A DNA stretch of 64,000 nt from an uncultured Anaerolinea sp. (GCA_964511765.1 CAZEGE010000001.1:41728-105727), one strand, 5' to 3'; positions 14,582 through 32,251 are shown, counted from the first letter of the stretch. Made by a program: numbers and translations. Notes: generated by a model from the sequence alone, not told the origin.

Positions 14582-16027
14582 ATGACCACCCTTCTCATCA
14601 AAAACGCGCATATCGTCACCATGGACGACCATCAACGGGAGATTCCCGAAGGTGGTCTTTTTATTCGCGAGGGAATCATTGAAAAGGTCGGCCCGATGAG
14701 CGAACTTCCCGACCCTTCGACAGGTTCAGGGCAGGCAGCCGATGAAGTTCTCGACCTCAAAGGTCATGTCGTTCTGCCTGGGCTGGTCAATACGCATCAT
14801 CATTTTTATCAAACCCTGACGCGCGCCGTTCCTGCCGCGCAGGACGCCAATCTTTTCAACTGGCTCAAAACTCTTTATCCCATTTGGGCGCGCCTCACTC
14901 CCGACGATATTTTTATCTCGACTCAGACCGCACTGGCAGAATTGGCCCTATCGGGATGCACCACCGCAGCGGATCATCTCTACCTCTTTCCAAACGGTTC
15001 AAAACTGGATGATGAAATTGCTGCGGCTGCCGAGATCGGATTACGCCTGCAAGCCTCGCGCGGTTCGATGAGCCTCGGCGAATCCAAAGGTGGACTCCCG
15101 CCCGATTCAGTGGTGGATAGCGAAGAAAATATCCTCAAAGATTCGCAGCGCCTGATCGAAAAATATCACGATGCAAAGCCCGGCGCGATGACTCAGATCG
15201 TACTCGCGCCCTGCTCGCCATTCAGCGTCACATCAGATTTAATGAAACAGTCTGCCAAACTGGCGCGTGATTATGGCGTGCATCTGCATACGCATCTCGC
15301 TGAGACCGAAGACGAAGAACAATTCTGCCAGCAGATGTTTGGCCATCGTCCCGTCGGTTATATGCAGGCTGTGGACTGGGTGGGTGAGGACGTCTGGTTT
15401 GCACATGCCGTCTGGGTCAACGATGAGGAGATACAGGTCTTTGCCAAACATCATTGCGGCGTGGCGCACTGTCCCACCTCAAATATGCGGCTGGCCTCTG
15501 GCATCGCGCCCATCAAGGAATTTCGCGCCGCTGGCGTGGACGTCGGCCTCGGCGTGGACGGCTCCGCTTCCAACGACGGCTCGCATCTGCTGGCGGAAGT
15601 CCGCAATGCGCTATTGGTGTCGAGAGTCAAAGAAGGCATGACAGGCTTCTCCGCTACACCCTCTCCCTCAGGGAGCCCCACAGGGGTGCTTCGCAAAGGG
15701 CAGGGTGAGGGCGAGCGAAAATTGATGACCGCGCGCGAAGCCTTGCATCTCGGCACACGCGGCGGCGCGGCGGTTCTGGGCCGTAATGATATCGGCAGCC
15801 TGGAAGCGGGCAAATGCGCCGACTTCTTCGCGGTCAACTTGAATCAACTGAGTTATACGGGCATGCATGACCCTGTGTCTGCCATCGTGTTTGGCCAGTC
15901 CATGAATGTGGATTACACTGTTGTCGGCGGAAAATTTATCGTAAAGGAAGGTCAGCTTATAACTATTAATGAACGTAAGTTGGTTGAAAAACATAACCAA
16001 GCCGCGAAACGATTATTGTTATCTTAA
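14582..16027 (+). CDS. 8-oxoguanine deaminase-like amidohydrolase
   Basis: PGLVNTHHHFYQTLTRA, HTHLAET, HCPTSNMRLASGI, GLGVDGSASNDG. Confidence 0.85.
   Translation: MTTLLIKNAHIVTMDDHQREIPEGGLFIREGIIEKVGPMSELPDPSTGSGQAADEVLDLKGHVVLPGLVNTHHHFYQTLTRAVPAAQDANLFNWLKTLYPIWARLTPDDIFISTQTALAELALSGCTTAADHLYLFPNGSKLDDEIAAAAEIGLRLQASRGSMSLGESKGGLPPDSVVDSEENILKDSQRLIEKYHDAKPGAMTQIVLAPCSPFSVTSDLMKQSAKLARDYGVHLHTHLAETEDEEQFCQQMFGHRPVGYMQAVDWVGEDVWFAHAVWVNDEEIQVFAKHHCGVAHCPTSNMRLASGIAPIKEFRAAGVDVGLGVDGSASNDGSHLLAEVRNALLVSRVKEGMTGFSATPSPSGSPTGVLRKGQGEGERKLMTAREALHLGTRGGAAVLGRNDIGSLEAGKCADFFAVNLNQLSYTGMHDPVSAIVFGQSMNVDYTVVGGKFIVKEGQLITINERKLVEKHNQAAKRLLLS
14712..14732. repeat. REP-like repeat inserted in frame
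   Basis: ACCCTTCGACAGGTTCAGGGC adds DPSTGSGQ between ELP and AADEVLDL. Confidence 0.6.
15659..15711. repeat. CCCTCTCCC/GGGAGAGGG palindrome with nested 21-nt insert, in frame
   Basis: CCCTCTCCCTCAGGGAG[CCCCACAGGGGTGCTTCGCAA]AGGGCAGGGTGAGGG. Shares the core CCCTCTCCCTCAGGGAG with the 38531-38578 copy. Confidence 0.7.
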
Positions 16028-16044: not shown

Positions 16045-16506
16045 ATGACAAACACACACAAGGTTGCGGCAGGCGACGATCTCTTTGGCGAACATCGAGG
16101 TCTCGGTATTAGTTTGATCTCTTTCAAGGTGGTACCGCAGGATAGCAGTGGTCTTTTTGTTATCGAAAATACCTTCCATGAGAAGGGCGGCCCTGCAAGA
16201 CATTTGCATTACGAACAGGATGAGTGGTTTTATGCGGTTGAAGGAGAATTTATTGTTGAAGTTGGGCAGGAAAGACTCACGCTAAAACCCGGCGACTCAC
16301 TTTTCGCGCCGCGCAAGATCCCTCATGTCTGGGCGTACGCAGGCGGTGGCGAGAAAGGCAGAATGCTGATCACCTTTATGCCCGCAGGCAAAATGGAGGC
16401 ATTTTTTCGTGAAGTAACAAAAGCAAACGCCATGCCGCCGCAAGACCCGGAATTATGGAAAGCCCATGGCATGGAGTTGCTTGGTCCGCCATTGAAAGTG
16501 GAATAG
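16045..16506 (+). CDS. Cupin domain protein (quercetin dioxygenase-like)
   Basis: GPARHLHYEQDEWFYAVEGE and PRKIPHVW cupin motifs. Confidence 0.85.
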   Translation: MTNTHKVAAGDDLFGEHRGLGISLISFKVVPQDSSGLFVIENTFHEKGGPARHLHYEQDEWFYAVEGEFIVEVGQERLTLKPGDSLFAPRKIPHVWAYAGGGEKGRMLITFMPAGKMEAFFREVTKANAMPPQDPELWKAHGMELLGPPLKVE

Positions 16507-17410: not shown

Positions 17411-17435
17411 TTGAATGTCCAGTTATGGAGAATTT

Positions 17436-19226
17436 ATGACCTCATCCACAAAACTCACTCGTACCCTTGTTGACGTAGCCATGGGACGCACCCAGGCCGA
17501 CCTTGTCATTCGGGGAGGTAAATGGGTGAGTGTGCAATCGGGTGAGGTCGTCCCGGATACCGATATTGCCATTGTGGCGGGTCACGTCGCTTACGTCGGG
17601 CGTGATACCAGTCATGCAATTGGAAAAAAGACAAAAGTCATCGAGGCCAGAGGGCGTTATCTTGTGCCCGGCCTTCTGGATGCGCATATGCACGTTGAAT
17701 CCGGCATGGTCACAGTGACAGAGTATGTGCGCGCGGTGGCAGTGCATGGAACGACCGGCATGTTCATCGACCCGCACGAGATCGCCAACGTCTTTGGTCT
17801 CAAAGGTGTGAAGTTAATGGTGGACGAGGCTCGCAAACAGCCCGTCCATGTCTGGGTACAAATGCCCTCTTGTGTTCCATCTGCGCCGGGGTTTGAAACA
17901 CCGGGTTCATCCATTGGCCCGAGGGAAGTGGCGGAAGCCATGAGCTGGAAGGGCATCATTGGCTTGGGAGAGATGATGAACTTCCCCGGCGTGTTCATGG
18001 GCGATAAAAAAATGCTGGAAGAAATGTCCGTGACGCATGCGGCAGGGAAGGTGATTGGCGGGCATTATGCCTCGCCGGACCTCGGCCTTCCGTTTCACGG
18101 GTATGTCGCGGGCGGCGCGGAGGACGACCACGAAGGCACTCGCCTGGATGATGCGGTCGCGCGTGTCAGGCAGGGTATGAAAGCCATGCTGCGTTACGGG
18201 TCCGCCTGGCATGACGTGGCGGCTCAGGTCAAAGCCATAACCGAAAAGAAATTGGATGCGCGCCGCTTCATCCTTTGCACCGATGATTCCCACGCGGCAA
18301 CGCTCACGCAGGAAGGTCACATGGACCGCGTGCTGCGCCATGCAATTTCGGAAGGTTTAAATCCGATGACTGCCATTCAAATGATGACCATCAATGCCGC
18401 CGAGCATTTCGGTCTTACCAAGGAAATGGGTATGATCGCGCCCGGCCGCTGGGCGGACCTGCTCCTGGTTGAGGATTTGATGAATTTCAAGGCCGATCTG
18501 GTCATCGCCAAAGGACAGGTCATTGCCGAGAATGGTGAATTGCAGGTCAAATTGCCCGTGGTCAAGTATCCCAAATGGGCCACCAATTCTGTGCATTTGA
18601 AGAGAAATCTCAAAGCGGAGGATTTTGCCCTGCGGACGAGAGCAAACGACGGAGTGGAGATTGAGGCGCATGTCATCGGTGTGATCGAGAATCAGGCGCC
18701 GACCCGCCATCTCAGGATGAAGGTCAAGGCAGACGCTGGCGAAGTCAAAGCGGATCTGAAACGCGACCTCGCGAAGATCGCGCTGGTGGAACGTCATCGC
18801 GCAACAGGCAAGGTCACGGTGGGATTGGTGAGCGGATTTGAATTCACAAGGAAGTGCGCGATCGGCTCGACAGTGGCGCATGACAGCCATCACATGATCG
18901 TGGTCGGAACTGATGATGAGAGCATGGCACTCGCTGCGAATGAACTGGCGAAATGCGGCGGCGGCCAGATTGTGGTGATCAACAGCGAAGTGGTTGGGCT
19001 GGTGGATTTGCCGATCGCGGGCTTGATGTCGAACGAGAGCGCGGATATTGTGGCGCAGAAAACCGCCTCGGTGCTTGAGGGTTTCAAGGCCTGCGGTTGT
19101 GAACTGAACAATCCGAATATGCAGTTAAGCTTAATGGCGCTGGTGGTCATACCTGAATTAAGGATTTCTGATAAGGGTCTTGTGGATGTAACCCAATTTG
19201 ATTTTGTGCCTGTGCTGGAAGATTGA
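17436..19226 (+). CDS. ade: Adenine deaminase
   Basis: PGLLDAHMHVES, DPHEIANV, GLGEMMN, DDHE, LCTDD, STVAHDSHH. RBS GGAG before 17436. Confidence 0.92.
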   Translation: MTSSTKLTRTLVDVAMGRTQADLVIRGGKWVSVQSGEVVPDTDIAIVAGHVAYVGRDTSHAIGKKTKVIEARGRYLVPGLLDAHMHVESGMVTVTEYVRAVAVHGTTGMFIDPHEIANVFGLKGVKLMVDEARKQPVHVWVQMPSCVPSAPGFETPGSSIGPREVAEAMSWKGIIGLGEMMNFPGVFMGDKKMLEEMSVTHAAGKVIGGHYASPDLGLPFHGYVAGGAEDDHEGTRLDDAVARVRQGMKAMLRYGSAWHDVAAQVKAITEKKLDARRFILCTDDSHAATLTQEGHMDRVLRHAISEGLNPMTAIQMMTINAAEHFGLTKEMGMIAPGRWADLLLVEDLMNFKADLVIAKGQVIAENGELQVKLPVVKYPKWATNSVHLKRNLKAEDFALRTRANDGVEIEAHVIGVIENQAPTRHLRMKVKADAGEVKADLKRDLAKIALVERHRATGKVTVGLVSGFEFTRKCAIGSTVAHDSHHMIVVGTDDESMALAANELAKCGGGQIVVINSEVVGLVDLPIAGLMSNESADIVAQKTASVLEGFKACGCELNNPNMQLSLMALVVIPELRISDKGLVDVTQFDFVPVLED

Positions 19227-19232: not shown

Positions 19233-19949
19233 ATGGCTAATTTTCCTTTTCAAAGAGTGCAGGTCGATCTGGCAGCGCTGATCGCTCGTTCGCCAGCGGG
19301 CCAGCGGCTTCCGTCCGAACCTGATCTTGCCAAACAACTTGGCGTTTCGCGCGCCACCTTGCGCGAGGCCATGCGTTCGTTTGAAACGCAGGGATTGATT
19401 CGCCGCAGGCAGGGTTCTGGAACTTTTGTGGTCGGCAAGATGCAGGTGCTGGATAGCGGCCTGGAAGTGCTTGAAAGCCTTGAGACGATTGCAATGCGCC
19501 TGGGGCTTGAGGTCTCTGTCAGTAATTTGAGCATCGAGCCGGCCGCTGCCGATGAAGAGCTGGTGAAGCTGCTGGATGTTGCGATGGGTGAAAAATTAAC
19601 TCGGGTCTGCCGCGTGGTGCGCACAGATAACAGACCCGTGGCATATCTTGAGGATATTCTGCCTGAGACCTTTCTCTCCTCGAAGGATTTACCCGAGGAT
19701 TTTCACGGTTCGGTTCTGGACTTTTTGCTGGGTCGCGGCGATGCTCTGGAATCTTCCCGCGCGAACGTCAGCGCCATCGGTGCAACAGCTGAAGTTGCCA
19801 AGGCGCTTGAGGTGCAGCGTGGCGACGTGTTATTGCATTTTTATTCACAGTTATATAATCGCAGCGGAAAAGTAGTGGATTATTCCCTTGGTTATTTTAT
19901 TCCCGGATATTTTCATTTCCATATCGTCCGGCGCGTAGGCATTACCTGA
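19233..19949 (+). CDS. GntR family regulator, HutC subfamily (HTH + UTRA)
   Basis: LPSEPDLAKQLGVSRATLREAM...RRQGSGTFV, then a C-terminal UTRA-type domain. Confidence 0.9.
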   Translation: MANFPFQRVQVDLAALIARSPAGQRLPSEPDLAKQLGVSRATLREAMRSFETQGLIRRRQGSGTFVVGKMQVLDSGLEVLESLETIAMRLGLEVSVSNLSIEPAAADEELVKLLDVAMGEKLTRVCRVVRTDNRPVAYLEDILPETFLSSKDLPEDFHGSVLDFLLGRGDALESSRANVSAIGATAEVAKALEVQRGDVLLHFYSQLYNRSGKVVDYSLGYFIPGYFHFHIVRRVGIT

Positions 19950-20003: not shown

Positions 20004-21227
20004 ATGACAAAAGTGAACGACATAAAGAAAAAAGTACAGGACAATCGTGAAAATATTATTCAATTCTTGCGTGATATTGTTGCCATTCCCAGCATGGAAG
20101 GCCAATTGAAGGACGTCGGCGAGCGCATCCAGGCCGAGATGCTGAAACTAGGTTTCGACGAGGCGCGCTTCGACAAGATGGGCAACACCATCGGTCGCAT
20201 TGGCGACGGTCCCAAGGTGATCGTCTTCGACTCGCATATTGACACCGTGGGCGTCGGCGACCCCAGCGAATGGGAATGGGATCCGTTCAAGGGCAAGGTT
20301 GAGGACGGCGTTTTGTATGCGAGGGGTGCATGTGATGAAAAAGGCAGCACGCCCGGCATGGTGTATGGTATGGCAATTGCCCGCGATCTGGGTCTGCTCG
20401 ATGGCTACACCGCCTACTACTTCGGCAACATGGAAGAGTGGTGCGATGGCATCGCACCCAACGCCTTCGTCGAGACCGACCCCCGGGTGAAACCCGATTT
20501 CGTGGTCATCGGCGAGCCGACCAAGATGCAGGTCTACCGCGGGCATAAAGGGCGAATCGAATTGAAGGTCACCGCCACCGGGCGCTCAGCGCACGCGGCG
20601 TCGCACTACCTGGGCGACAACGCCGTGTACAAGATGATGGCGATCATCACGCAAATCCGCGAGTTGGATCGTCGGATGCGCTTCGGTATGGGCTATCATC
20701 CGGTGCAGGGATTTCCCTCAATCGCGGTGACCGATGTTTCGGCGCGCACGGCTTCACTCAACGCGGTGCCCGATCAGTTCACGATCTATATTGATCGCCG
20801 CATCACTTCGAACGAGCCGCACGACGCAGTGATTGAGCAGATCAAGGGACTGATCCCCGACTATTTGCAGGACGAAATTCACGTCGAAGAACTGTTCTAC
20901 GACGCGCCGTCCTACACAGGCTTCGTCTTTCCGGTGTTGAAGTTCTACCCGCCCTGGCTGCTGGATGACGCGCATCCATTGACGCAGGCGGGGCAGTGCA
21001 CTATCGAGACGCTGTGGGGCGAGAAGCGGATGCTGGGCACGTGGGACTTCTCGACCAACGGCACCTATTGGGCTGGCAAGGCGAATATCCCGTCCATCGG
21101 CTTTGGCCCTGGCGATGAGAAAACCGCGCACATGCGCCACGAAAACGTGTTGCTCGACGAGGTGGTACGCGCCACGGAGTTCTATGCGCTGTTGCCAAAA
21201 ATGTTGGCTGAACAAAGCCAAAAGTGA
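20004..21227 (+). CDS. ygeY: YgeY-family M20 metallohydrolase
   Basis: DSHIDTVGVGD, RGACDEKG, EEWCDG, GEPT, YRGHKGR, WDFSTNG, GFGPGDE...AH. Confidence 0.8.
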   Translation: MTKVNDIKKKVQDNRENIIQFLRDIVAIPSMEGQLKDVGERIQAEMLKLGFDEARFDKMGNTIGRIGDGPKVIVFDSHIDTVGVGDPSEWEWDPFKGKVEDGVLYARGACDEKGSTPGMVYGMAIARDLGLLDGYTAYYFGNMEEWCDGIAPNAFVETDPRVKPDFVVIGEPTKMQVYRGHKGRIELKVTATGRSAHAASHYLGDNAVYKMMAIITQIRELDRRMRFGMGYHPVQGFPSIAVTDVSARTASLNAVPDQFTIYIDRRITSNEPHDAVIEQIKGLIPDYLQDEIHVEELFYDAPSYTGFVFPVLKFYPPWLLDDAHPLTQAGQCTIETLWGEKRMLGTWDFSTNGTYWAGKANIPSIGFGPGDEKTAHMRHENVLLDEVVRATEFYALLPKMLAEQSQK

Positions 21228-21345
21228 GTTTGAAGGGTTGCCCCTTTTAATATTTAACGAAAAAATCAGGCCGAGAATCACACTTTAGAATTACAGGAGT
21301 CCACTATCATATCCACCATCTTCAACACAAATAAGGAGGTTCGTC

Positions 21346-22299
21346 ATGCGTAGTTTCAATGGTCGCGACATCTTGTCGCTCAAGGAATTCGAGCGCAATG
21401 AGTTTTTCCACGTGTTCGATGTGGCTCAGAAAATGGAGCCAATTGCACGCGCAAGAAAGAACGTGGATCTGCTCAAGGAGAAGACTCTGGTAACGGCTTT
21501 CTACCAGCCATCGACGCGCACGCGTCTGGCTCATGAATCGGCCATGCACCGCCTCGGCGGCCATGTCACGGGATTTTCAGATGCCAAGATGACCCGCGCC
21601 GGGGACTTCTACCAGGAGTCCATCAAGGATACGGTCAAGATGCTGGAGTACTATGGCGATGTGATCGTGATGCGCCATTTTCAGCAAGGCGCGCCGCATG
21701 AAGCCGCGAAGTGGGCGAGTGTGCCCATCATCAATGGCGGCGATGGCTGGGGCGAGCACCCGACGCAAATTCTCACCGACCTGTACACGGTTTTGCGTGA
21801 GAAAGGCCGCATTGATGGTCTCAAGTGGCTGGCGGTTGGCGATATGCGCATGCGAACTATGCACTCCCTCGGATATGCTTTGAGCCAGTTTGATTGCCCG
21901 ATCACATTTGTCGCTCCGCCGGAAATGGGACTCACCGATGAATTCAAGCAGGAACTCAAACAGTACAGCGTAAATTTCAAGGAAGCCGATCATGTTGAGA
22001 AAGCCATTGCAGAGGCAGATGTGATCCTGGTCGAGCCAGTTGTACAGCCAGATTACACAAAGTCTCGCGATGAGCGCACGGGCGAACTTAATTTGACGCC
22101 TGCGAACTACAAGATCACGCGCGAACTGCTGGAGACGAAAGCCAAGTCCGATGCCATCCTGCTTCACTCGCTCCCGCGCATGGACGAGATCCCAACTGAT
22201 GTGGATATCACACGCTGGTCGCGCTACTGGCAGGAAGCCTTCAACGGTGTCGTGATGCGAATGTCTTTGCTGGCGCTGGTCTTGGGCGCAACGGAATAA
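21346..22299 (+). CDS. Aspartate carbamoyltransferase-like enzyme with non-canonical acceptor site
   Basis: STRTR, VMRH, EHPTQ, RTMHSL and HSLPR present; the ATCase KGES and TRxQxER motifs are absent. Confidence 0.8.
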   Translation: MRSFNGRDILSLKEFERNEFFHVFDVAQKMEPIARARKNVDLLKEKTLVTAFYQPSTRTRLAHESAMHRLGGHVTGFSDAKMTRAGDFYQESIKDTVKMLEYYGDVIVMRHFQQGAPHEAAKWASVPIINGGDGWGEHPTQILTDLYTVLREKGRIDGLKWLAVGDMRMRTMHSLGYALSQFDCPITFVAPPEMGLTDEFKQELKQYSVNFKEADHVEKAIAEADVILVEPVVQPDYTKSRDERTGELNLTPANYKITRELLETKAKSDAILLHSLPRMDEIPTDVDITRWSRYWQEAFNGVVMRMSLLALVLGATE

Positions 22300-22327
22300 T
22301 AGTCGGCTAGTTGCTAGTCGGCTAGTC
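22300..22327. repeat. Short tandem repeat upstream of the four-helix-bundle gene
   Basis: TAGTCGGC-TAGTTGC-TAGTCGGC-TAGTC. Confidence 0.7.
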
Positions 22328-22341
22328 AAGGAGATGGCGCG

Positions 22342-22710
22342 ATGAGTACAGTCAAGAACTTCGAGGAGTTGCAGAGCTGGCAAAAGGCTAGGAGTTAGGC
22401 TGGGTATATTTACGAACTGACGCGGAAAGAAAAGTTTTCTCGTGACTGGGCTTTATGCAACCAGATACGAGATGCCGCAGGCTCTGTCATGCACAACATC
22501 GCCGAAGGTTTTGAAGCAGGCTATGACCCCGAATTTGCCCGTTTCCTGAAAATGGCAAGACGTTCAGCGGGCGAAGTCCAATCTGAACTGTATTTAGCCC
22601 TGGATGCCAGCTACATTACCAACGAGGAGTTGAAAAAGGCTTATGACCTTGCGGTAGAGACGAAAAAATTGATCAATGGAATGTTGAAATACCTGCGTAA
22701 TTCCGACTAA
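22342..22710 (+). pseudogene. Four helix bundle protein (23S rRNA IVS protein family) with in-frame TAG
   Basis: MSTVKNFEELQSWQKARS*AGYIYELT...NQIRDAAGSVMHNIAEGFE...FARFLKMARRSAGEVQSELY. TAG at 22396-22398; RBS AAGGAG. Confidence 0.8.
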
Positions 22711-22727
22711 CCGACTAGAAGGACTAG
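22703..22727. repeat. Short tandem repeat downstream of the four-helix-bundle gene, complementary to the upstream repeat
   Basis: CCGACTAA-CCGACTAG-AAGGACTAG. CCGACTA is the reverse complement of TAGTCGG. Confidence 0.7.
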
Positions 22728-22747
22728 AAGACAAGGAGACTAATAAT

Positions 22748-23737
22748 ATGCAAACAAATTTTCGTGGTCGTGATTTCATTGGCGACCTCGACTTCACAAA
22801 AGAGGAAGTCGAAACTGTTTTGGAAGTGGCCTGGGATCTTAAGCGCAAGCGCGCACTTGGCGAACCGCATCCATACCTGCGGGATAAGGTGCTGGCGATG
22901 CTCTTCTTCTTTTCATCCACACGCACACGTGGCTCGTTCGAGGCGGGCATGGCGCAGCTTGGCGGACACGGCGCTTTCATCGACAGCAATACAACCCAAA
23001 TTTCACACGGTGATACCCCGGTTGAAATTGGCGAGATCTTTGGCCGCTATTTTGACGGTATTGCCATCCGTCACTGCGATTACGGCGACGGAAACAAATA
23101 TCTAAATGCGGTGGCCAAGTCCAGCCGTGCGCCTGTCCTGAATATGCAATGCGATATTTATCACCCCTTCCAGTGCCTGGCTGATTTGATGACCATCATG
23201 GAAAAGAAGGGCAAGGATTTGCGCAAGAAGAAGATCGTAGTCTCATGGGCTTATGCCGCTTCCTACCTCAAGCCGATTTCTGTTCCCCAGTCTTTGATTT
23301 TGCAAATGCCGCGCTTTGGCATGGATGTGACGCTGGCTTATCCGCCTGAATTCTCATTGATGCCTGATATCGTTGAGCAGGCCAAGCAGCAGGCCAAGAT
23401 CGCCGGCACCAAGTTCGAGATCATTGACTCTAAAGATGGCATGACCGAAGCCTGCAAGAACGCGGACGTGATCTACGCCAAATCCTGGGGTCCGCTTTTG
23501 ACTACAAACGAGAAGGTTGAAGGCAAGAAACTGCAGGATATGTACAAAAATTGGATCATGGACGATGCCAAATTAAAGGTGGCCCACAAGGACGCCATCT
23601 ACATGCACCCGTTGCCTGCTGACCGCGATGTCGAAGTCACCAGCGATGTCCTGGATGGGCCGCAATCCGTGGTCTTTGATGAAGCTGAGAATCGCCTGCA
23701 CGCGCAGAAGGCCGTCATGGCGTTGACGATGGCGTAG
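22748..23737 (+). CDS. YgeW/AOTCase-like carbamoyltransferase
   Basis: SSTRTR, HPFQ, SWAYAASYLKPISVPQS, YAKSW, MHPLPADR, EAENRLH. Confidence 0.8.
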   Translation: MQTNFRGRDFIGDLDFTKEEVETVLEVAWDLKRKRALGEPHPYLRDKVLAMLFFFSSTRTRGSFEAGMAQLGGHGAFIDSNTTQISHGDTPVEIGEIFGRYFDGIAIRHCDYGDGNKYLNAVAKSSRAPVLNMQCDIYHPFQCLADLMTIMEKKGKDLRKKKIVVSWAYAASYLKPISVPQSLILQMPRFGMDVTLAYPPEFSLMPDIVEQAKQQAKIAGTKFEIIDSKDGMTEACKNADVIYAKSWGPLLTTNEKVEGKKLQDMYKNWIMDDAKLKVAHKDAIYMHPLPADRDVEVTSDVLDGPQSVVFDEAENRLHAQKAVMALTMA

Positions 23738-23745
23738 GAGAACGC

Positions 23746-24699
23746 ATGACCAATAAACTTGCAGTAATCGCCATCGGCGGCAACTCGCTTATCGTTGACG
23801 AAAAGAACGTAAGCGTTGAAAGCCAGTACAGGGCCGCAAAAGAGACTGCCGTTCATATTGCCGATATGATCGAGCAGGGTTGGGAAGTGGCAATCGGTCA
23901 TGGGAATGGTCCGCAGGTCGGATTCATCCTCAGACGTTCAGAAATTGCTGCGCGAGTCGAGGGGATGCACGAAGTCCCGTTGGATGTGTGCGGCGCGGAT
24001 AGCCAGGGTGCAATTGGGTATGCCCTCCAGCAAAACCTGCAAAACATTCTCTATCAGCGCGGCATCAAGAAGAAAGTGGTCACGGTCATTACGCAGACCC
24101 TTGTGGACAAAGCCGACCCGGCCTTCCAGAAACCGGCCAAGCCGATCGGCGGATTCATGACACAAGAGGAGGCCGAGCGCCGCCAGCGCGAACAAGGCTG
24201 GAGTGTGATCGAGGACGCCGGGCGCGGTTGGAGGCGTGTGGTCGCTTCGCCCCTGCCGAAAGAAATCGTTGAATTGGAAACCGTTCAAACTTTGCTGGAA
24301 AAGGGGATTGTTACCATTACGGTGGGCGGTGGCGGAATCCCGGTGATTGACCCCGGTGATGGAAATTACGAAGGTACTGCGGCGGTAGTGGATAAGGATT
24401 ATGCCTCGTCCCTGCTGGCGCGTGAAATTAAGGCTGATCTATTCGTCATCTCCACCGCGGTTGAAAAGGTTGCCATTAACTTTGGCAAGCCAGATCAAAA
24501 ATGGCTGGATAGAATAACACTTGCCGAGGCCAAGGCTTACCTGGCTGAAGGCATACACTTTGCCAAAGGCTCCATGGCTCCGAAGATTCAAGCTGTGATC
24601 TGGTATCTTGAGAACGGCGGCAAACAGGCGCTCATCACCAATCCTGAAAACATTGGCCGCGCGCTCAAAGGTGAAACAGGTACCTGGATCGAGCGATAG
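23746..24699 (+). CDS. arcC: Carbamate kinase
   Basis: VIAIGGNSL, HGNGPQVG, GWRRVVASPLP, AVVDKD, KGSMAPKI. Confidence 0.93.
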   Translation: MTNKLAVIAIGGNSLIVDEKNVSVESQYRAAKETAVHIADMIEQGWEVAIGHGNGPQVGFILRRSEIAARVEGMHEVPLDVCGADSQGAIGYALQQNLQNILYQRGIKKKVVTVITQTLVDKADPAFQKPAKPIGGFMTQEEAERRQREQGWSVIEDAGRGWRRVVASPLPKEIVELETVQTLLEKGIVTITVGGGGIPVIDPGDGNYEGTAAVVDKDYASSLLAREIKADLFVISTAVEKVAINFGKPDQKWLDRITLAEAKAYLAEGIHFAKGSMAPKIQAVIWYLENGGKQALITNPENIGRALKGETGTWIER

Positions 24700-24704: not shown

Positions 24705-26720
24705 ATGAAAAAATGGATCGAACGGCTTGATGGCGTGAAATTTAAAACGCGTAGCGCTGCGTGGTTTATGCTATTAATTGCCGTACTGACCTATGGACTG
24801 TTCTTCTGGAAGCGCGGTTTTTATTGGGATGAATTTCCCTGGGCGTGGATCTATTATCGCCTGGGTCCTGATGTCTTAACAAAAACCTTCTCCACCAGCC
24901 GCCCGTTTTGGGGCATGATCTATCAGCTCACCCTGCCAGTAATTGGACCGAACCCCTGGGTTTGGCAATTACTGGCAATTGTTTTGCGCTGGTTTACTGC
25001 GCTTTTGTTATGGGCGATACTGCGTATTTTGTGGCCCGCGCACTCAAAACCCGCATTTTGGGCGAGTTTACTTTTCCTTGTCTACCCCGGTATGGGGCAG
25101 CACTTCATTGCCATGATGTACAGCCATTTTTATATTGTGCTGTCGTGCTATTTGCTTTCCATTTATCTTTCACTGCTGGCTCTGAAGGATGAAAAATACC
25201 GCTGGGTTTTATTTGGGGCATCCTGGTTGCTGGCCGCGGTCAACCTGCTGACCATGGAATATTTTTATTTCCTCGAGTTCGCACGGATTTTCCTCTTCTG
25301 GCAGGTGTTAACAGGCAGGAATAAAAACCGCATCCAAAAAACCGTATTGTACTTTTTGCCATTCTTGTTGATATTTTCAGGCGTCACATTTTGGCGTATG
25401 ACCTTCTTTACCTTCCAAAACGCCAGTTATCGATATGTTTTGCTGGACGCATTCCGCGATGATTTTCTGGCAGGGTTATTGTTGTTTATAAATAACGTTG
25501 CCCTGAGTTTCTGGCGGACCGTTTTTGAAGTCTGGTTGTATCCACTGCTAACCCTTGGCTTATCGGGATTTGGACCGCTCACGCTCGCCTTGATGCTGGT
25601 CCTGTTATTCTCGATCATTTTTCTGGTTGGCATATATTTGTTCAAATTTACAATAAACGACTCCGATGATCGTGAATTTGCCCGGCAGGCAGGTTTTATC
25701 GGTTTGGTTTTTTGGGGTCTATCGGGCGGATCGGTGTGGGTGATAGGCGTCGTTCCGCAGTTGAACTTCTCGATAGATCGCTTCATGCTGCCCTTCATGC
25801 TGGGGGCGAGTCTATTGCTGGCTAGTCTGATCGCGTTGATTAAAAACCGGCGCTCCCAAATGATCCTGGTGGCTTTGCTGGTTGGCTTTGCCGCGAGCAG
25901 ACATTTCCGTCTCGAAGATATTTTCCGCCACGATTGGGCCACCCAGCAAGACTTCTTTTGGCAAATGACATGGCGAATTCCGGCGCTGGAAAAAGGGACG
26001 ATCCTGCTTTCCAACGACCTGCCTGTTACCTACTATTCAGATAATTCATTGACCGGGCCTCTGAATTGGATCTACAGTCCGCCTGGTGAGATGAACAGTA
26101 TTTTATACTTCGCCTCCATACGGGTTGGAAAAACATTGCCAAGCGTGGAGCCGGGTCAAGCACATCAGTTGTACTATATCGGCCCGACCTTTTATGGGAA
26201 CACTTCCAAGATCCTTGTGATCCATTATGAACCGCCCGGTTGTTTCCGCGTGATCGATCCTGAGGTTGAAGAAACGAATCGGCTTCTGCCTCCTGCCCTT
26301 AGAGATGTTGCGCGCTATTCCAATCAGGATGTGATCCTGATCGAACAGCAGGCGCAGCTCCCAGGTCAGCTTTACGGAAGCGAGCCGTCGCATGGCTGGT
26401 GTTATTATTTTGGACAGGCTGAATTGGCGCGTCAAAAAGGAGATTGGGACCAGGTAGTCGCACTTGGTGAAACCGCGTTTGCGCTTGACGACCACCCAAA
26501 TGACCCAGTCGAACGTTTCGTTTTTATTGAAGGTTATGCTCATGTTGGAGATTGGAAAAAGGCGGTAGAATTATCAAATACTTCCTATAAAATATCAAAA
26601 AACTATGTCGGTCCGCTGCTCTGCAGGTTGTGGGATCGGATTGAACGCCAGACTCAAAGTACCCCGGAGCAGGTTTCTGCACTGGATAAAGTACGAAGCG
26701 AGTTCGAGTGTTTACCTTAG
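24705..26720 (+). CDS. Large multi-pass membrane protein with soluble C-terminal domain (possibly GT-C fold)
   Basis: 671 aa. GFYWDEFPW and SRPFWG N-terminal loop, about 11 TM segments, helical C-terminus. Confidence 0.7.
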   Translation: MKKWIERLDGVKFKTRSAAWFMLLIAVLTYGLFFWKRGFYWDEFPWAWIYYRLGPDVLTKTFSTSRPFWGMIYQLTLPVIGPNPWVWQLLAIVLRWFTALLLWAILRILWPAHSKPAFWASLLFLVYPGMGQHFIAMMYSHFYIVLSCYLLSIYLSLLALKDEKYRWVLFGASWLLAAVNLLTMEYFYFLEFARIFLFWQVLTGRNKNRIQKTVLYFLPFLLIFSGVTFWRMTFFTFQNASYRYVLLDAFRDDFLAGLLLFINNVALSFWRTVFEVWLYPLLTLGLSGFGPLTLALMLVLLFSIIFLVGIYLFKFTINDSDDREFARQAGFIGLVFWGLSGGSVWVIGVVPQLNFSIDRFMLPFMLGASLLLASLIALIKNRRSQMILVALLVGFAASRHFRLEDIFRHDWATQQDFFWQMTWRIPALEKGTILLSNDLPVTYYSDNSLTGPLNWIYSPPGEMNSILYFASIRVGKTLPSVEPGQAHQLYYIGPTFYGNTSKILVIHYEPPGCFRVIDPEVEETNRLLPPALRDVARYSNQDVILIEQQAQLPGQLYGSEPSHGWCYYFGQAELARQKGDWDQVVALGETAFALDDHPNDPVERFVFIEGYAHVGDWKKAVELSNTSYKISKNYVGPLLCRLWDRIERQTQSTPEQVSALDKVRSEFECLP

Positions 26721-26856: not shown

Positions 26857-28134
26857 ATGCGTAAGAATTTTGCCCGCCTCGCAATGTTTGCGTTGGCACT
26901 CATGTTAGTCCTGTCCGCTTGTGGTGGTGCTCAACCTGCCGCCACCGAAGCCCCTGCTGCCGGGGGAGCTCCTGCTGCTACGGAAGCCCCTGTTGCCGCT
27001 ACTGAAGCGCCCGCTGATTCGAGCGGCTTTCAGATCCCCGAGGTAGTAGATGGAAAATTCAATGTCGCCATGGTTTTGATCGGACCCCACGATGATGGCG
27101 GTTGGTCGCAGGCGCATTACGAAGGCCTGATGTACATTGAAGAGAATGTCCCGAATGTGCACACGGCCTATATTGAAAATGTACCTGAAGGTGCAGATTC
27201 CGAACAGGTTTTCCGCAGCCTTTCACGCAAGGGATTCAACCTGATCTTCGGCACATCCTTTGGTTTCGGCGACCCGATGCAGGCTGTCGCTGAGGAGTTC
27301 CCGGATGTGATGTATATTCACCTAACCGGTATCAACTCCAACCAGACCAACTTTGGCAACCTGATGGGTGCGATGGAAGATATGAAATACTTGGCTGGAA
27401 TGCTGGCAGGTGCGCGCGCCAAGATGGACGGAAACCCCAAACTTGGTTATATGGCCACCTTCCCCATCCCTGAAGAAATTCGCCTCGGTAATGCCATTGC
27501 GTTGGGTATGAAGAAGACCTGCCCCGAATGCACCATGGATGTCCGCTGGATCAATACCTGGCATGACCCTGTCATTGAGAAAGAAGCTGCGGCTTCCCTC
27601 TTTGATGCTGGTGCTCAGGTTGTGTTCACCGGCGCTGATACTCCTGCGAATGCCGATGTAGCGCAGGAAAAAGGCAAGTGGGGCGTAACCTATGACTGGT
27701 ATGGTTCCTGCAAGGTGGATGCTTGTCTCACCGCTCCTTACTGGGTCTGGGGTCCAATTTATTCCGCAATCACCGAAAAAGTAATTGCCGGAACCTATGT
27801 CCCTGGTTGGGATTACTTTGATGCCGAGACAGGTGCATTGGGATTGTATGGTTTCATGGAAGGCCAGGAACTTACCCCCGGTGTGGCCGATCTTGATCCT
27901 GAAGTGATTGCAATGGTGAAAGATACCCTTGCCAAGATGCTCGCTGGCGAATTCACTCGCTTTGATGTGTTCACTGGCCCGATTAACGATAATCAGGGTA
28001 ACGTGGTTCTGCCTGCCGGCCAAAGCCTGGAACAGGTCGATCTTGACGCCTTCCCTGAATATGGTTTGCCGTGTACCGTCTCAGTCTGTATGAAGTGGTG
28101 GGCCGAAGGCATTACCGCTGAACTGCCTCAATAG
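26857..28134 (+). CDS. BMP-family (nucleoside/purine) ABC substrate-binding lipoprotein 1
   Basis: Lipobox LSAC, AATEAP repeats, DGGWSQAH, IFGTSFGF, NAIALG. Confidence 0.88.
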   Translation: MRKNFARLAMFALALMLVLSACGGAQPAATEAPAAGGAPAATEAPVAATEAPADSSGFQIPEVVDGKFNVAMVLIGPHDDGGWSQAHYEGLMYIEENVPNVHTAYIENVPEGADSEQVFRSLSRKGFNLIFGTSFGFGDPMQAVAEEFPDVMYIHLTGINSNQTNFGNLMGAMEDMKYLAGMLAGARAKMDGNPKLGYMATFPIPEEIRLGNAIALGMKKTCPECTMDVRWINTWHDPVIEKEAAASLFDAGAQVVFTGADTPANADVAQEKGKWGVTYDWYGSCKVDACLTAPYWVWGPIYSAITEKVIAGTYVPGWDYFDAETGALGLYGFMEGQELTPGVADLDPEVIAMVKDTLAKMLAGEFTRFDVFTGPINDNQGNVVLPAGQSLEQVDLDAFPEYGLPCTVSVCMKWWAEGITAELPQ

Positions 28135-28151
28135 CCGTTAAATTGATAAAT

Positions 28152-28183
28152 GGGCCAGGACTCTCAGGGTTCTGGCCCTCTTT
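28152..28183 (+). terminator. Stem-loop after BMP gene 1
   Basis: GGGCCAGGAC...GTTCTGGCCC followed by TCTTT. Confidence 0.6.
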
Positions 28184-28294
28184 GTACAATGTCTGGTTGA
28201 CCGTCCCGCAGATTTGACGAGAGAATTTCATAATTCTAGGGAAACCTGCGGGATGTTTCCCAATATATCGACTTTATCGCAGGAGAGTAACCTG

Positions 28295-29890
28295 GTGATT
28301 AATCAAACCTCCTCAACGCTTGCTATACCCTCGGAAACACCCTTGATTGTCGAAATGCGTGGGATCGTCAAGCGTTTTCCCGGTGTGCTGGCAAACGACC
28401 ACGTTGATTTTGAATTATGTCAGGGCGAAATACACGGATTGCTGGGAGAGAACGGGGCCGGCAAAAGCACTTTAATGAATGTATTGGCTGGCTTATATCG
28501 CCAGGAAGCCGGCACTATTTTGGTCAGGGGTGAGCCGAAAGTTTTTTCCTCCCCGCGTGATGCGATCAAATCGGGTATTGGCATGGTGCATCAGCATTTC
28601 ATGCTTGTGCCATCTCAAACCGTCACGGAAAATATTTTGCTTGGGCTTGATGATCCGCGCTTCATCATGCGTTTACCTGATTACGATACCAAGATTGCAG
28701 AATTGGGTGAACGCTTTGGATTAAAAGTGGATCCGCGCGTAAAGATCTGGCAATTATCTGTGGGGGAACAACAGCGTGTTGAAATTCTAAAAATGCTTTA
28801 TCGCGGCGTGGACGTGCTTATCATGGATGAGCCGACTGCTGTGCTTGCCCCACAAGAGATCGTAGGTTTATTTGAAACCTTGCGAGCCATGATTGCTCAG
28901 GGGAAATCCGTTATTTTTATCAGTCATAAATTACAGGAAGTCAGCGCCATTGCGGACCGCGTCAGTGTTTTGCGGCGTGGGGTGGGTACGGCTTCGGGCG
29001 TGCCTTCAAAGGGGATTTCACGCCAGGAATTGGCGCGTTTGATGGTAGGGCGCGAAGTTATTTTTTCAGTTGATAAAAAGCCCTGCAATCCACAAAGTGT
29101 TGTGCTGGATGTTAAAGATATTCATGCCGAGAATGATAAAGGCCTGCCTGCTTTGCGCGGGGTTTCATTGAATGTGCGCGCGGGTGAAATTGTCGGTGTG
29201 GCGGGTGTGGCAGGGAATGGTCAGAGCGAGCTTTCACAGGTTATTTCCGGTATGCGTAAATGTAAACAGGGACAGGTTCTGTTGAATGGCGATACGGTCA
29301 GCAACCGAAATACGTTATTTGGCATTCAACACGGCATGGCGTATGTCCCCGAGGATCGCACCCATGTAGGCAGCGCCCCCAATCTCAGCGTGACAGATAA
29401 CGTCATTATGAAGAATTATCGCAAACCTCCGATCTCAAATAAGGGTTTGCTGGATATGAAAGTTGCCACCAAACTTGCCAATGAACTTAAAACGGCCTAC
29501 GACATTATCGTGCCCAGTGTTTCCACGCCCGTTCGTTTATTATCGGGCGGAAACCTGCAGCGTGTGATCCTGGCGCGTGAGATCTCCGGTTTGCCTGCGT
29601 TCATGGTTGCGGTGCAGCCGACGCGTGGCCTGGATGTCGGCGCAATCGAAGGAGTCCACCGTTTATTGCTTGCCCAGCGCGAAGCGGGTGCGGCTGTCCT
29701 GCTTATTTCTGAGGAGCTGGAGGAATTGCTCTCGCTCAGTGATCGCGTTTATGTGATCTACGAAGGAAAGATTATGGGCGAGGTGAAGGTCGAAGGCGGC
29801 GAAGCAGATGAGGACCTGGTTGATACGATTGGTCAGATGATGACGGGCACTCCGCTCGATCAAATCCCAAAAGAAGGAGTGGCTGCATAA
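28295..29890 (+). CDS. Tandem-domain ABC ATPase (NupA/CUT2 type)
   Basis: GENGAGKS, LSVGEQQR, IMDEPT, LSGGNLQR, QPTRGLD. GTG start with AGGAG RBS. Confidence 0.92.
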   Translation: MINQTSSTLAIPSETPLIVEMRGIVKRFPGVLANDHVDFELCQGEIHGLLGENGAGKSTLMNVLAGLYRQEAGTILVRGEPKVFSSPRDAIKSGIGMVHQHFMLVPSQTVTENILLGLDDPRFIMRLPDYDTKIAELGERFGLKVDPRVKIWQLSVGEQQRVEILKMLYRGVDVLIMDEPTAVLAPQEIVGLFETLRAMIAQGKSVIFISHKLQEVSAIADRVSVLRRGVGTASGVPSKGISRQELARLMVGREVIFSVDKKPCNPQSVVLDVKDIHAENDKGLPALRGVSLNVRAGEIVGVAGVAGNGQSELSQVISGMRKCKQGQVLLNGDTVSNRNTLFGIQHGMAYVPEDRTHVGSAPNLSVTDNVIMKNYRKPPISNKGLLDMKVATKLANELKTAYDIIVPSVSTPVRLLSGGNLQRVILAREISGLPAFMVAVQPTRGLDVGAIEGVHRLLLAQREAGAAVLLISEELEELLSLSDRVYVIYEGKIMGEVKVEGGEADEDLVDTIGQMMTGTPLDQIPKEGVAA

Positions 29891-31011
29891 TGGCTGAGTC
29901 GACCTCTGTTAAACCAAGAATGCCATTTCGTATCCGGATTGAGCCGCGCTTGAGCGAGCCTCCGGCATGGTATCCCGCTGTAATCTCCCTGGGTGCGCTT
30001 ATTGTAGCCTTGATATTGGGTGGTATTTTGATCACATTTTCCGGCGGCGATGCGATCCGTTCTTATCAACATATAGCCAAGGCTTCGTTTGGTGATATTG
30101 GTGTGCTTTCTGATACCATCGTAAAAGCAACGCCGATCCTTTTGGCGGCTCTGGCTTGTGCGGTGGCGTTCCGCATGAAATTGTGGAATATCGGCGCGGA
30201 GGGGCAGTTCATCATGGGTGCTTTTGGCGCGAGCGCGATCGTGCTTGCACCGGTATTGCCTGCGGAAACTTCGCGCTGGGTGTTTATTCCTGTCATGATG
30301 CTGGCAGGCATGGTTTCAGGTGCGATCTGGGGGTTTATCCCCGGCTATCTTAAGGCAAAATTCAATGTGAATGAGATCATCAGTACCTTGATGTTGAATT
30401 ATGTTGCAGTGGCGTGGGTTAACTTTTGGATCTTTGGTGTGTGGACGGAAGGCGGTTTTCAAATGTCCCCCAAGTTCCCAAACAATTCCTGGTTGCCGCG
30501 TTTGCTGGATTATGCCAAGGCTTTTCCAGCCTTTCGCGGATTGACTACTCACCTTGGATTGGTTATTGGGATCATAGCGGCATTTATTTTGTGGTTAATC
30601 ATCTTTCGCAGCCGTTGGGGATATGAGATCCGCTTGATTGGCGATAATCCAAAGGCGGCACAATATGCAGGCATCAATATCACACGGAACACGATCTGGG
30701 TGATGATGCTCTCTGGCGCGCTGGCAGGACTGGGTGGCATGTCCGAAATTTCCGGCGTTGTCCATCGTTTGCAAACTGCGCCGATTGCGGCCGGATATGG
30801 TTTTACGGGAATCATCGTTGCCTGGCTGGCTAAACTGAATCCACTGGTCATCATATTCGTTTCCGTCTTATTCGGTGCGTTGATCCTCGCAGGACGAGAG
30901 ATCCAGCCTTCGGGTGTCCCCAAAATGATCCAGGGAATTATACTGGTCTGTCTCATCGCCAGCGATTTCCTGCTGCGCTATCGGATCGTGATTGCACACG
31001 GGGAGGAATAA
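29890..31011 (+). CDS. Nucleoside ABC permease
   Basis: LWNIGAEGQF, NEIISTLMLN, GYEIRLIGDN, GYGFTGIIVAWL. Confidence 0.9.
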   Translation: MAESTSVKPRMPFRIRIEPRLSEPPAWYPAVISLGALIVALILGGILITFSGGDAIRSYQHIAKASFGDIGVLSDTIVKATPILLAALACAVAFRMKLWNIGAEGQFIMGAFGASAIVLAPVLPAETSRWVFIPVMMLAGMVSGAIWGFIPGYLKAKFNVNEIISTLMLNYVAVAWVNFWIFGVWTEGGFQMSPKFPNNSWLPRLLDYAKAFPAFRGLTTHLGLVIGIIAAFILWLIIFRSRWGYEIRLIGDNPKAAQYAGINITRNTIWVMMLSGALAGLGGMSEISGVVHRLQTAPIAAGYGFTGIIVAWLAKLNPLVIIFVSVLFGALILAGREIQPSGVPKMIQGIILVCLIASDFLLRYRIVIAHGEE

Positions 31012-31013
31012 TT

Positions 31014-32203: not shown

Positions 32204-32251
32204 TTTAAGCACTTTCAGTATACTGATACAATAGGAGACAGGTAGCTGCCC

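Follow-up and report, generated by a model that had tools for sequence, protein, structure and literature searches.

A conserved Anaerolineae gene module with two carbamoyltransferases and one carbamate kinase, a probable ATP-yielding end of reductive purine degradation

Introduction

Why would a bacterium place two different carbamoyltransferases in front of a single carbamate kinase (CK)? The question is raised by a 64,000-nucleotide stretch of DNA from an uncultured Anaerolinea sp. (GCA_964511765.1 CAZEGE010000001.1:41728-105727), hereafter the window, in which positions 20004-24699 of the + strand hold four open reading frames (ORFs) in series, encoding a YgeY-family hydrolase, an enzyme resembling aspartate carbamoyltransferase (ATCase), a second carbamoyltransferase, and CK. 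An earlier note on this DNA had described the series, with a YgeW/AOTCase-like second transferase, within a region that also holds adenine and 8-oxoguanine deaminases, two ABC systems and an Xdh-family enzyme, and had suggested that the two transferases could phosphorolyse two ureido groups and so feed CK. Strand and family hidden Markov model (HMM) scores bear out the four genes, the neighbours are all located in the window (Table 1), and the labels given to the two transferases hold.

The genes recall the reductive pathway of urate degradation in gut bacteria, which was not solved until 2025 (PMC12507026; 10.1101/2025.04.24.650524). In that pathway urate is converted to 2,8-dioxopurine by XdhD, which is reduced by YgfK or UacX and opened by SsnA and HyuA to 2,3-diureidopropionate; YgeW then removes one ureido group by phosphorolysis, with ATP formed via YqeA, while YgeY hydrolyses the other and YgeX converts diaminopropionate to pyruvate, giving one ATP per urate through YgeW and CK (PMC12507026; 10.1101/2025.04.24.650524).

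We propose, with moderate confidence, that the four genes form the ureide-cleaving, ATP-yielding end of a reductive (2,8-dioxopurine) fermentation of urate and purines, in an Anaerolineae version that employs an ATCase-derived enzyme, here called a pseudo-ATCase, for the second ureido group. Judged from its sequence and context, this second enzyme probably lets the bacterium gain ATP from both urea-like groups of the purine. The module is genuine, a conserved version of a known pathway, and the biochemical prediction that it makes is specific, testable and moderately surprising.

Active-site residues of the two carbamoyltransferases

The carbamoyl-phosphate site of the ATCase-like protein (S52-T53-R54-T55, R105, H134 and Q137) is invariant in 27 sequences, comprising the window protein and 26 orthologues, and the STRT and HPTQ motifs and R167 are likewise invariant among the orthologues. 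The positions facing the second substrate differ from PyrB in all 27 sequences: K84 is replaced by Y, K83 by D, S80 by R, and P266 by S, such that HPLP reads HSLP. In ATCase, Lys84 (and Ser80) come from the 80s loop of the neighbouring chain, and R229 and Q231 of the RxQxER motif in the 240s loop bind the β-carboxylate of aspartate. In a HMMER alignment with three solved ATCases, as in a 93-sequence MAFFT alignment, EPVVQ stands opposite TRVQK in this loop, so that R229 is replaced by P and Q231 by V.

Among 1.84 billion cluster representatives searched, 942 matched at E ≤ 1e-30; 93 sequences were aligned and 91 full-length representatives compared. Among the latter, 46 canonical ATCases (KKGE, YGRT, RxQxER, HPLP) split from a clade of 40 members, all with TRAGDxYxE, without RxQxER and one residue shorter ahead of R167; the loop TRAGDFYQES is common to the whole pseudo-ATCase clade, and the window protein lies inside a well-supported inner clade (98/92). 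By these residues the ATCase-like protein is a pseudo-ATCase in the sense of Barba et al. 2013, not PyrB. Public records name it aspartate carbamoyltransferase, and a homologue search with it returned only orthologues of at least 93% identity. An AlphaFold2 model built from a shallow orthologue alignment has a pLDDT of 62.0.

The second transferase misses every curated cut-off: OTC (252.6 against 306), AOTC NF003384 (231 against 288), YgeW NF005538 (191.6 against 453) and TIGR03316 (180.8 against 500). Its best E. coli match is YgeW (34% identity over 350 aa, E 2e-54), compared with 27% for ArgI and 28% for PyrB, and a tree that included only three outgroup-side sequences places the two as sisters, with support of 97/88. 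Shi et al. 2015 (PMC4581275) proposed a list of second-substrate residues for YgeW; in an alignment with YgeW and ArgI, Q98, Q160, S200, K203, K270, D334 and E344 are kept in 57 orthologues, and D124 is not (C or V). The surroundings of these residues are also similar, Q160 lying in NMQCDIYHPFQ (NLQCDIDHPTQ in YgeW), K270 in YAKSWGP (YPKSWAP in YgeW), and S200 and K203 in a proline-rich loop that reads SWAYAASYLKPISVPQS in the window protein and TWAYSPSYGKPLSVPQG in YgeW. The protein is nonetheless compact, with 329 aa to the 396 aa of YgeW and HPLP where YgeW has HCLP; relative to YgeW it is shorter by about 19 residues at the N-terminus, by 11 in the 120s region, by about 16 in the 240s loop and by about 19 at the C-terminus, and it has no terminal helices. 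HPLP, the change at D124, and the missing terminal helices and 120s/240s parts account for its failure at the YgeW HMM cut-offs.

Other members of the superfamily fit less well. Set against the DxxxSMG, HCLP, Lys53 (of FxKxSxRT) and Asn167 of ornithine carbamoyltransferase (OTCase), the protein reads YAKSWGPLL for YTDVWVSMG, HPLP for HCLP and FFFSSTRT for FEKDSTRT. Shi et al. (PMC4581275) equate Glu144/Glu142 of AOTCase/SOTCase with YgeW Q160, and Trp77/Trp75 of the 80s loop with YgeW Q98; in the window protein both positions are occupied by Gln, as deduced through the YgeW alignment, with no AOTCase or SOTCase sequence aligned. On this evidence it is a compact YgeW-type carbamoyltransferase, neither ArgF nor AOTCase. 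The sequence shows knot signatures, namely the proline-rich loop and a 120s loop longer than that of OTCase, and the enzyme is probably trefoil-knotted; the pLDDT of its AlphaFold2 model is only 59.1.

These residues bear directly on a simpler explanation, in which the pair serves biosynthesis as PyrB and ArgF (or an acyl-ornithine transcarbamylase), CK supplies carbamoyl phosphate as in Pyrococcus, and the purine genes are mere neighbours. The ATCase-like protein does pass TIGR00670 (Table 1), its public names agree with a biosynthetic role, both transferases are highly conserved (78-97%), and the best solved relatives are the Pyrococcus ATCase and OTCase. Neither a canonical pyrB nor a canonical argF was demonstrated in a module-bearing genome; the matches of a contig scan with a canonical Anaerolineae ATCase (P0167 = NPV07317.1), mostly from Bathyarchaeia and unrelated Anaerolineae, had no overlap with those genomes. 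However, K84, R229 and Q231 of the aspartate site and DxxxSMG, HCLP and K53 of the ornithine site are missing in all orthologues, there are no pyrI, pyrC or arg genes near the transferases within the window, and the same NPV07317.1 demonstrates that canonical RxQxER ATCases do occur in Anaerolineae. Of 69 loci of close relatives that are otherwise syntenic, moreover, 31 have no pseudo-ATCase, which would be unexpected of an essential gene. The operon stands behind a GntR/UTRA regulator together with YgeY, and relatives add YgfK, SsnA or an F420 reductase. We therefore regard a purely biosynthetic pair, the outcome that the earlier note had named as its refutation, as very unlikely on the strength of the active-site residues, and the least probable of the readings considered here.

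Conservation and linkage to the reductive urate pathway

Orthologues of the YgeW-type transferase with 78-97% identity were found in at least 80 species-level metagenome-assembled genomes (MAGs) of Chloroflexota, mostly Anaerolineales. The usual gene order is 8-oxoguanine deaminase, adenine deaminase, GntR regulator, YgeY, (pseudo-ATCase), YgeW-type transferase and CK, followed by a membrane protein or ABC systems; its recurrence across 80 species-level Chloroflexota genomes means that the arrangement seen in the window is no chance juxtaposition. About 500 genomes in all hold the module. The 8-oxoguanine deaminase was found in 41 of 64 related loci, in most loci a GntR/UTRA gene immediately precedes YgeY or the pseudo-ATCase, and CK adjoins the YgeW-type gene in 53 loci. 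Near-identical DNA occurs in metagenomes of sediment, groundwater and lake water; the sequencing runs that match the locus are DNA metagenomes only, with no RNA runs among them.

The 64-kb window contains neither SsnA nor a dearomatising reductase (YgfK, UacX or F420 LLM), and among its ORFs only the 8-oxoguanine deaminase resembles SsnA, with 24% identity. With E. coli HyuA, YgeX/DpaL and YqeB as queries, tblastn found nothing reportable within the window, in agreement with the earlier note, which had listed hyuA, ssnA, dpaL and yqeB as absent. We rejected the idea that a PALP-family gene at 45413-46681 is a hidden dpaL: its score is that of a threonine synthase, and it has only about 52% identity to the cluster-type PALP proteins of the loci L043, L257 and L258 described below.

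The upstream half of the pathway does appear beside the module in relatives. In four Anaerolineales loci (L043, L044, L045 and L060) a single cluster holds Xdh, GntR, YgeY, pseudo-ATCase, YgeW-type transferase, CK, two PALP genes, a hydrolase, YgfK (TIGR03315, 909 against a cut-off of 835) and SsnA (NF005540, 554 against 444). In an Acidimicrobiia MAG (L257) the order is Xdh, an SsnA-like gene, an F420 LLM reductase, pseudo-ATCase, YgeW-type transferase, CK and two PALP genes, with a Bmp ABC system as well and no YgeY in the cluster; identities to the window proteins are 72% for the pseudo-ATCase, 62% for the YgeW-type transferase and 64% for CK. A further locus, L258, has adenine deaminase, GntR, pseudo-ATCase, a four-helix-bundle gene, YgeW-type transferase, CK and two PALP genes.

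A second type of locus, widespread in the Anaerolineae with at least 582 relatives, combines SsnA, an F420:NADP oxidoreductase (Fno), CofE and an F420-dependent LLM reductase (with YgfM-like and XdhD-like genes in some). It lies on other contigs of six module-bearing genomes (DATEDD01, CAZLWG01, JBBSCM01, JAIFKY01, JBMFPJ01 and JACAEM01), and the window-type Xdh lies directly 5' of SsnA in seven genomes (L099, L111, L118, L143, L147, L156 and L158). These loci agree with the report of Li et al. (PMC12507026) that Chloroflexota SsnA clusters use an F420-type reductase. Among MAGs labelled Anaerolinea thermophila, the YgeW-type gene with CK is found at L068 and the SsnA locus at L174. At L089:10007-20849 and in L096-L175 the series reads SsnA, Fno, CofE, F420-LLM, thioesterase, a YgfM-like FAD protein and an XdhD-like protein (998 aa), thus with its own F420-recycling genes and with HyuA not nearby.

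Behind CK, two genes for PLP-dependent enzymes stand in the same order at L043:12057-14771, L257:5542-8328 and L258:11921-14793. The pair consists of a ThrC-like (threonine-synthase-like, about 430 aa) and a CysK-like (about 488 aa) PALP protein and recurs across phyla; it is not in the window. Where present, it may stand in for the missing YgeX by removing diaminopropionate.

Co-occurrence of YgeY and the pseudo-ATCase

The presence of the two genes was counted over 69 loci with enough upstream sequence. Both are present in 24, YgeY alone in 29, the pseudo-ATCase alone in 14 and neither in 2; YgeY is therefore missing from 14 of the 38 loci with a pseudo-ATCase and from 2 of the 31 that lack one (Fisher p = 0.0036, odds ratio 8.5, a test that ignores phylogeny). 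On the transferase tree the architecture changes at least 15 times, and the state with pseudo-ATCase only arose at least five times. CK is present in every pseudo-ATCase locus with readable downstream sequence. The preferential loss of YgeY alongside the pseudo-ATCase suggests that the latter replaces hydrolysis of the second ureido group by phosphorolysis, and given the unfavourable equilibrium of the transferase, YgeY may persist in many genomes as an irreversible bypass.

The YgeY orthologues themselves fall into two classes by identity to the window protein, at about 63-70% and about 75-88%, which suggests two YgeY lineages; all loci of the latter class also carry the pseudo-ATCase.

Actinomycete relatives and the likely substrate

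The nearest subclade of the pseudo-ATCase outside Chloroflexota includes actinomycete proteins. One, from Streptomyces griseoflavus (L256), has 46% identity and the same MEPVVQPDYT loop, TRAGDFF and HSLPR; its gene overlaps that of SbnA (TIGR03945, 378 against 350) next to a nonribosomal peptide synthetase (NRPS) gene, in a cluster (L256:2629-19613, JBIWOJ010000016.1) that also encodes SbnB (TIGR03944, 394 against 327). SbnA and SbnB are the pair that synthesises L-2,3-diaminopropionate. The NRPS of this cluster has 2445 aa, and further genes encode a PPTase, a Rieske oxygenase, an F420 LLM protein and a glutamate-mutase-like protein. The relative in an Actinoplanes sp. (L259) adjoins PALP and OCD genes of the SbnA/SbnB type in a secondary-metabolite cluster, and the contexts of two further relatives were uninformative.

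The SbnA/SbnB neighbourhood indicates that the actinomycete relatives most likely carbamoylate diaminopropionate. They would then be ATCase-branch diaminopropionate carbamoyltransferases, distinct from the known HDLP-type enzymes (DPTCases). The window protein, with two cationic residues lost and Asp83 gained, would also accommodate zwitterionic or cationic diaminopropionate better than dianionic aspartate. We thus put forward, as a tentative proposal that is plausible but short of probable, that the pseudo-ATCase represents a new specificity of the ATCase branch, a (mono-ureido-)2,3-diaminopropionate:phosphate carbamoyltransferase. It would act catabolically behind the compact YgeW in Anaerolineae and Acidimicrobiia, where it would give two ATP per purine and make YgeY dispensable, and anabolically beside SbnA/SbnB in actinomycetes, where it would supply ureido-alanine units for nonribosomal peptides.

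The same relatives can be turned to a different explanation, in which the window pseudo-ATCase is synthetic, carbamoylating diaminopropionate for detoxification or storage, or is a non-catalytic partner that modulates the YgeW-type enzyme, with no extra ATP in either case. The actinomycete proteins are evidently anabolic, carbamoyltransferase equilibria favour carbamoylation, and Li et al. saw only weak phosphorolysis by YgeW (PMC12507026). A non-catalytic or synthetic role is difficult to reconcile, however, with the invariance of all carbamoyl-phosphate-binding residues and the constant linkage of the gene to CK, and the repeated loss of YgeY in its company would block the pathway unless the pseudo-ATCase removes a ureido group. 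We consider such a role decidedly improbable.

Proposed route and points against it

Gene identities, active-site differences, conserved synteny, linkage in relatives and the YgeY/pseudo-ATCase pattern are observed; which substrates are used, in what order and with what regiochemistry the ureido groups are cleaved, and how much ATP results are inferred in the route that follows. Purines would be taken up by the Bmp ABC systems, and the adenine and 8-oxoguanine deaminases and Xdh would funnel them to urate. Ring reduction and opening, by SsnA and an F420- or YgfK-type reductase encoded elsewhere, would give the diureide of 2,3-diaminopropionate, from which the compact YgeW-type transferase would remove the first ureido group by phosphorolysis. 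The remaining mono-ureido-diaminopropionate would be either hydrolysed by YgeY or phosphorolysed by the pseudo-ATCase, and CK would convert each carbamoyl phosphate and ADP to ATP. With the pseudo-ATCase, two ATP per urate instead of one would be gained at substrate level, and YgeY would become dispensable. This scheme matches the suggestion of the earlier note that two transferases attack two ureido groups and feed CK, a suggestion favoured by the YgfK/SsnA linkage, the YgeW residues and the pattern of YgeY loss; the alternative it had offered, that one transferase serves pyrimidine ureides, gained no support.

Several points weigh against the scheme. Published schemes disagree on which ureido group YgeW removes, even for E. 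coli, and because carbamoyltransferase equilibria favour carbamoylation, two successive phosphorolyses would need a strong downstream pull. No HyuA or YgeX/DpaL homologue was found in the window or in about 170 Anaerolineae loci (L001-L089, L096-L175), so that the ureide in these organisms may differ from the 2,3-diureidopropionate of E. coli. The co-occurrence of YgeY and the pseudo-ATCase in 24 genomes could mean that they act on different substrates rather than as alternatives. In the 240s loop, a pairwise MAFFT alignment with E. coli PyrB sets TKSRDER opposite TRVQKER after an 8-aa insertion, leaving a Lys and an Arg near the site, and the AlphaFold2 models (pLDDT 62 and 59) are too poor to settle the alignment; RxQ is missing from the pseudo-ATCase under either version. 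Finally, the diureide that arises from urate is reported to have the (R)/D configuration, whereas SbnA and SbnB make L-diaminopropionate, and the Streptomyces analogy may therefore fail on stereochemistry or regiochemistry.

In a further alternative the module would be catabolic and ATP-yielding, but the ureide of the pseudo-ATCase would differ from the product of the YgeW-type enzyme, with two pathways sharing one CK. Candidate ureides are N-carbamoyl-aspartate (from orotate or pyrimidine breakdown), allantoate (as for the ureidoglycine carbamoyltransferase, UGTCase, of Rubrobacter), oxalurate, and 4-ureido-5-imidazolecarboxylate (from the clostridial xanthine route). A precedent exists in Rubrobacter, where a pseudo-ATCase phosphorolyses allantoate next to CK (PMC4016543), and the joint presence of YgeY and the pseudo-ATCase in 24 loci, a local chemistry that is not fully E. 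coli-like in lacking HyuA and DpaL homologues, and a cupin gene of unassigned role (Table 1) all leave room for a separate substrate. Yet neither the window nor the related loci contain uricase, allantoinase, allantoicase, dihydroorotase or dihydropyrimidinase, and the missing Lys84 and RxQxER argue against carbamoyl-aspartate. UGTCase retains the Lys84 equivalent, K106* (PMC4581275), which in the window pseudo-ATCase is Tyr. The pseudo-ATCase gene is always accompanied by the YgeW-type gene and CK, and stands among SsnA and reductase genes in L257 and L043, while the pattern of YgeY loss and the SbnA/SbnB context of relatives point to a ureide of diaminopropionate. We judge a different ureide to be unlikely, though a more serious contender than either alternative discussed above.

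Comparison with known systems

The window resembles the E. coli/Clostridium cluster (xdhD-ygfM, ygfK, ssnA, hyuA, ygeW, yqeA, ygeY, ygeX; PMC12507026; 10.1101/2025.04.24.650524) in bringing together genes for YgeY, a YgeW-type enzyme, CK, Xdh and YqeC/MocA, to which relatives of the locus add YgfK and SsnA, and in the predicted coupling of ureido phosphorolysis to ATP formation by CK, as in that cluster. It differs in having a second, ATCase-derived transferase, a compact YgeW with HPLP, and no HyuA or YgeX homologue, and in that the upstream half (SsnA, F420-dependent LLM reductase, Fno, CofE) usually lies at a separate locus in Anaerolineae. The regulator is of the GntR/UTRA type instead of the sigma-54 YgeV of the E. 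coli cluster, and the hosts come from sediment, groundwater and lake water instead of the gut.

Two of the pseudo-ATCases described by Barba et al. 2013 (PMC4016543) are instructive. The UGTCase of Rubrobacter xylanophilus, which phosphorolyses allantoate, adjoins CK; that of Nocardioides sp. JS614 adjoins a ygeW homologue, xdhABC and hyuA, and no function was proposed for it. The latter is the same pairing of pseudo-ATCase and YgeW homologue as in the window, and it qualifies the earlier note's statement that such clusters have a single carbamoyltransferase, which is correct for the characterised E. coli and clostridial clusters but does not extend to Nocardioides (PMC4016543). The window protein agrees with the pseudo-ATCases of Barba et al. 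in being an ATCase-branch paralogue with intact STRT and HPTQ, no RxQ and an altered HxLP (HSLP), encoded outside pyr operons and beside CK and purine-catabolic genes; its closest solved relative is the P. abyssi ATCase. UGTCase differs in its Lys84 equivalent and in its uricase and allantoinase context (the oxidative route), as opposed to the Tyr, the EPVVQPDYT 240s loop and the reductive route of the window.

An exchange of hydrolase and carbamoyltransferase at one ureido step, trading irreversibility for ATP, is already known between C. difficile UacY and E. coli YgeW (Li et al. 2025). The principle is the same here, but the exchange in the window would concern the other ureido group (YgeY against pseudo-ATCase), such that both groups could become carbamoyl phosphate. 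The arginine and agmatine deiminase pathways likewise have a catabolic OTCase or putrescine carbamoyltransferase (PTCase) pulled by CK for ATP, as proposed here, with different substrates and enzyme subfamilies; the window module would instead have two transferases in series with one kinase. The DPTCases of viomycin and zwittermicin biosynthesis (PMC4581275) share diaminopropionate as the likely amine substrate of the pseudo-ATCase, but belong to the OTCase branch, with HDLP and (T/S)RWQTTG in place of HSLP and EPVVQPDYT.

In the literature covered by our search, pseudo-ATCases or UGTCase are mentioned only by Barba et al. 2013, by Shi et al. 2015 and by a paper describing an algorithm that maps chemical reactions. 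Of the papers listed for the reductive pathway, none refers to a second carbamoyltransferase in its title or abstract, and term searches within Liu et al., within Li et al. and within a review of 2026 were likewise negative.

If the proposed route is correct, a widespread environmental version of the pathway would conserve both ureido groups and double the substrate-level yield, which would matter to energy-limited anaerobes of sediment and groundwater. It would also provide a substrate class for part of the large pseudo-ATCase radiation that public records routinely name aspartate carbamoyltransferase, and give engineered uricolytic strains another enzyme to draw on. It would draw attention, too, to the compact HPLP form of YgeW, which escapes present YgeW HMMs and identity cut-offs, so that surveys of urate-degrading capacity undercount Chloroflexota.

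Gene inventory and surroundings of the module

The features of the window are collected in Table 1. The CK gene starts 8 bp past that of the YgeW-type transferase. The YqeC-MocA fusion and the adjoining MocA, with no YqeB in the window, hint that Xdh is a selenium-dependent molybdenum hydroxylase. A promoter and terminator scan of the locus gave nothing useful above shuffled background.

Table 1 Positions, strands and family assignments of features in the 64-kb window. Scores are in the form score > or < cut-off where a cut-off is given.
Feature	Position	Strand	Scores, domains or identity	Role or remark
MocA	8104-8682	-	TIGR03310 162 bits	Maturation factor for (seleno-)molybdenum hydroxylase
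YqeC-MocA fusion	8692-10056	-	TIGR03172 (YqeC) 151.6 > 73; MocA domain	Maturation factor for (seleno-)molybdenum hydroxylase
8-oxoguanine deaminase-type amidohydrolase	14582-16027	+	NF006055 668.7 > 532	Putative feeder, 8-oxoguanine/guanine to urate/xanthine
Small cupin gene	16045-16506			Role unassigned; between 8-oxoguanine deaminase and adenine deaminase
Adenine deaminase	17415-19226	+	TIGR01178 513.9 > 472.5; Adenine_deam_C domain	Putative feeder, adenine to hypoxanthine
GntR/UTRA (HutC-type) regulator	19233-19949	+	GntR and UTRA domains	Likely repressor of catabolic operon
YgeY-family M20 hydrolase	20004-21227	+	TIGR03526 451.1 > 321.5; NF009555 423.5 > 321; 38% identity to E. coli YgeY	
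Pseudo-ATCase (ATCase-like)	21346-22299	+	TIGR00670 254.4 > 236.95; NF002032 226 < 263; 37% identity to E. coli PyrB	
Interrupted four-helix-bundle gene (23S rRNA IVS protein family)	22343-22710	+	PF05635 60.7 bits	
Compact YgeW-type carbamoyltransferase	22748-23737	+	Below every NCBIfam cut-off	Nearest E. coli protein YgeW
Carbamate kinase	23746-24699	+	TIGR00746 382.1 > 358.25; NF009007 410 > 266; 51% identity to E. coli YqeA	
Two Bmp/PnrA-type ABC importers	26857-37198	+		Presumably purine or nucleoside uptake
Xdh-family molybdenum hydroxylase, FAD subunit and fused FeS/Mo subunit	37267-41157	+	XdhB 163 bits; Se_dep_XDH 753 bits (cut-off 830)	

The gap of about 450 bp between the two transferase genes (22300-22747) holds a four-helix-bundle gene with an in-frame TAG at 22394-22396. 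Around the stop the window reads ..QKARS*AGYIY.., compared with ..KARELAGYVY.. in intact copies at other loci, and repeats of the type TAGTCGGC flank the gene. In relatives this slot is filled by a 174-aa histidine-phosphatase-like gene (20 loci), an uncharacterised 97-aa gene (9 loci) or an intact four-helix-bundle gene (8 loci and L258). The four-helix-bundle gene is probably outside the pathway, in a slot of variable content.

Downstream, 24705-26720 encodes a polytopic membrane protein of 671 aa that matches neither Pfam nor NCBIfam and starts 5 bp past the CK gene; it recurs behind CK in 32 related loci at only 36-77% identity. At L024:11098-14257, in one Anaerolinea MAG, the position of CK behind the YgeW-type gene is instead held by an Lrp/AsnC regulator and a putrescine-carbamoyltransferase-like gene. 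We considered the latter as a canonical ArgF and rejected this assignment on account of its DLWWWVG and HNLP motifs; the ORF that follows it resembles agmatine deiminase, as judged by eye.

On the - strand at 41201-45198, between the Xdh genes and the threonine-synthase-like gene, lies a region of low GC content (0.37-0.46, compared with about 0.50 elsewhere) that encodes a DruA-like protein (PF14236), a HerA/DUF87 ATPase and a NurA-like nuclease, and that looks like an inserted defence island.

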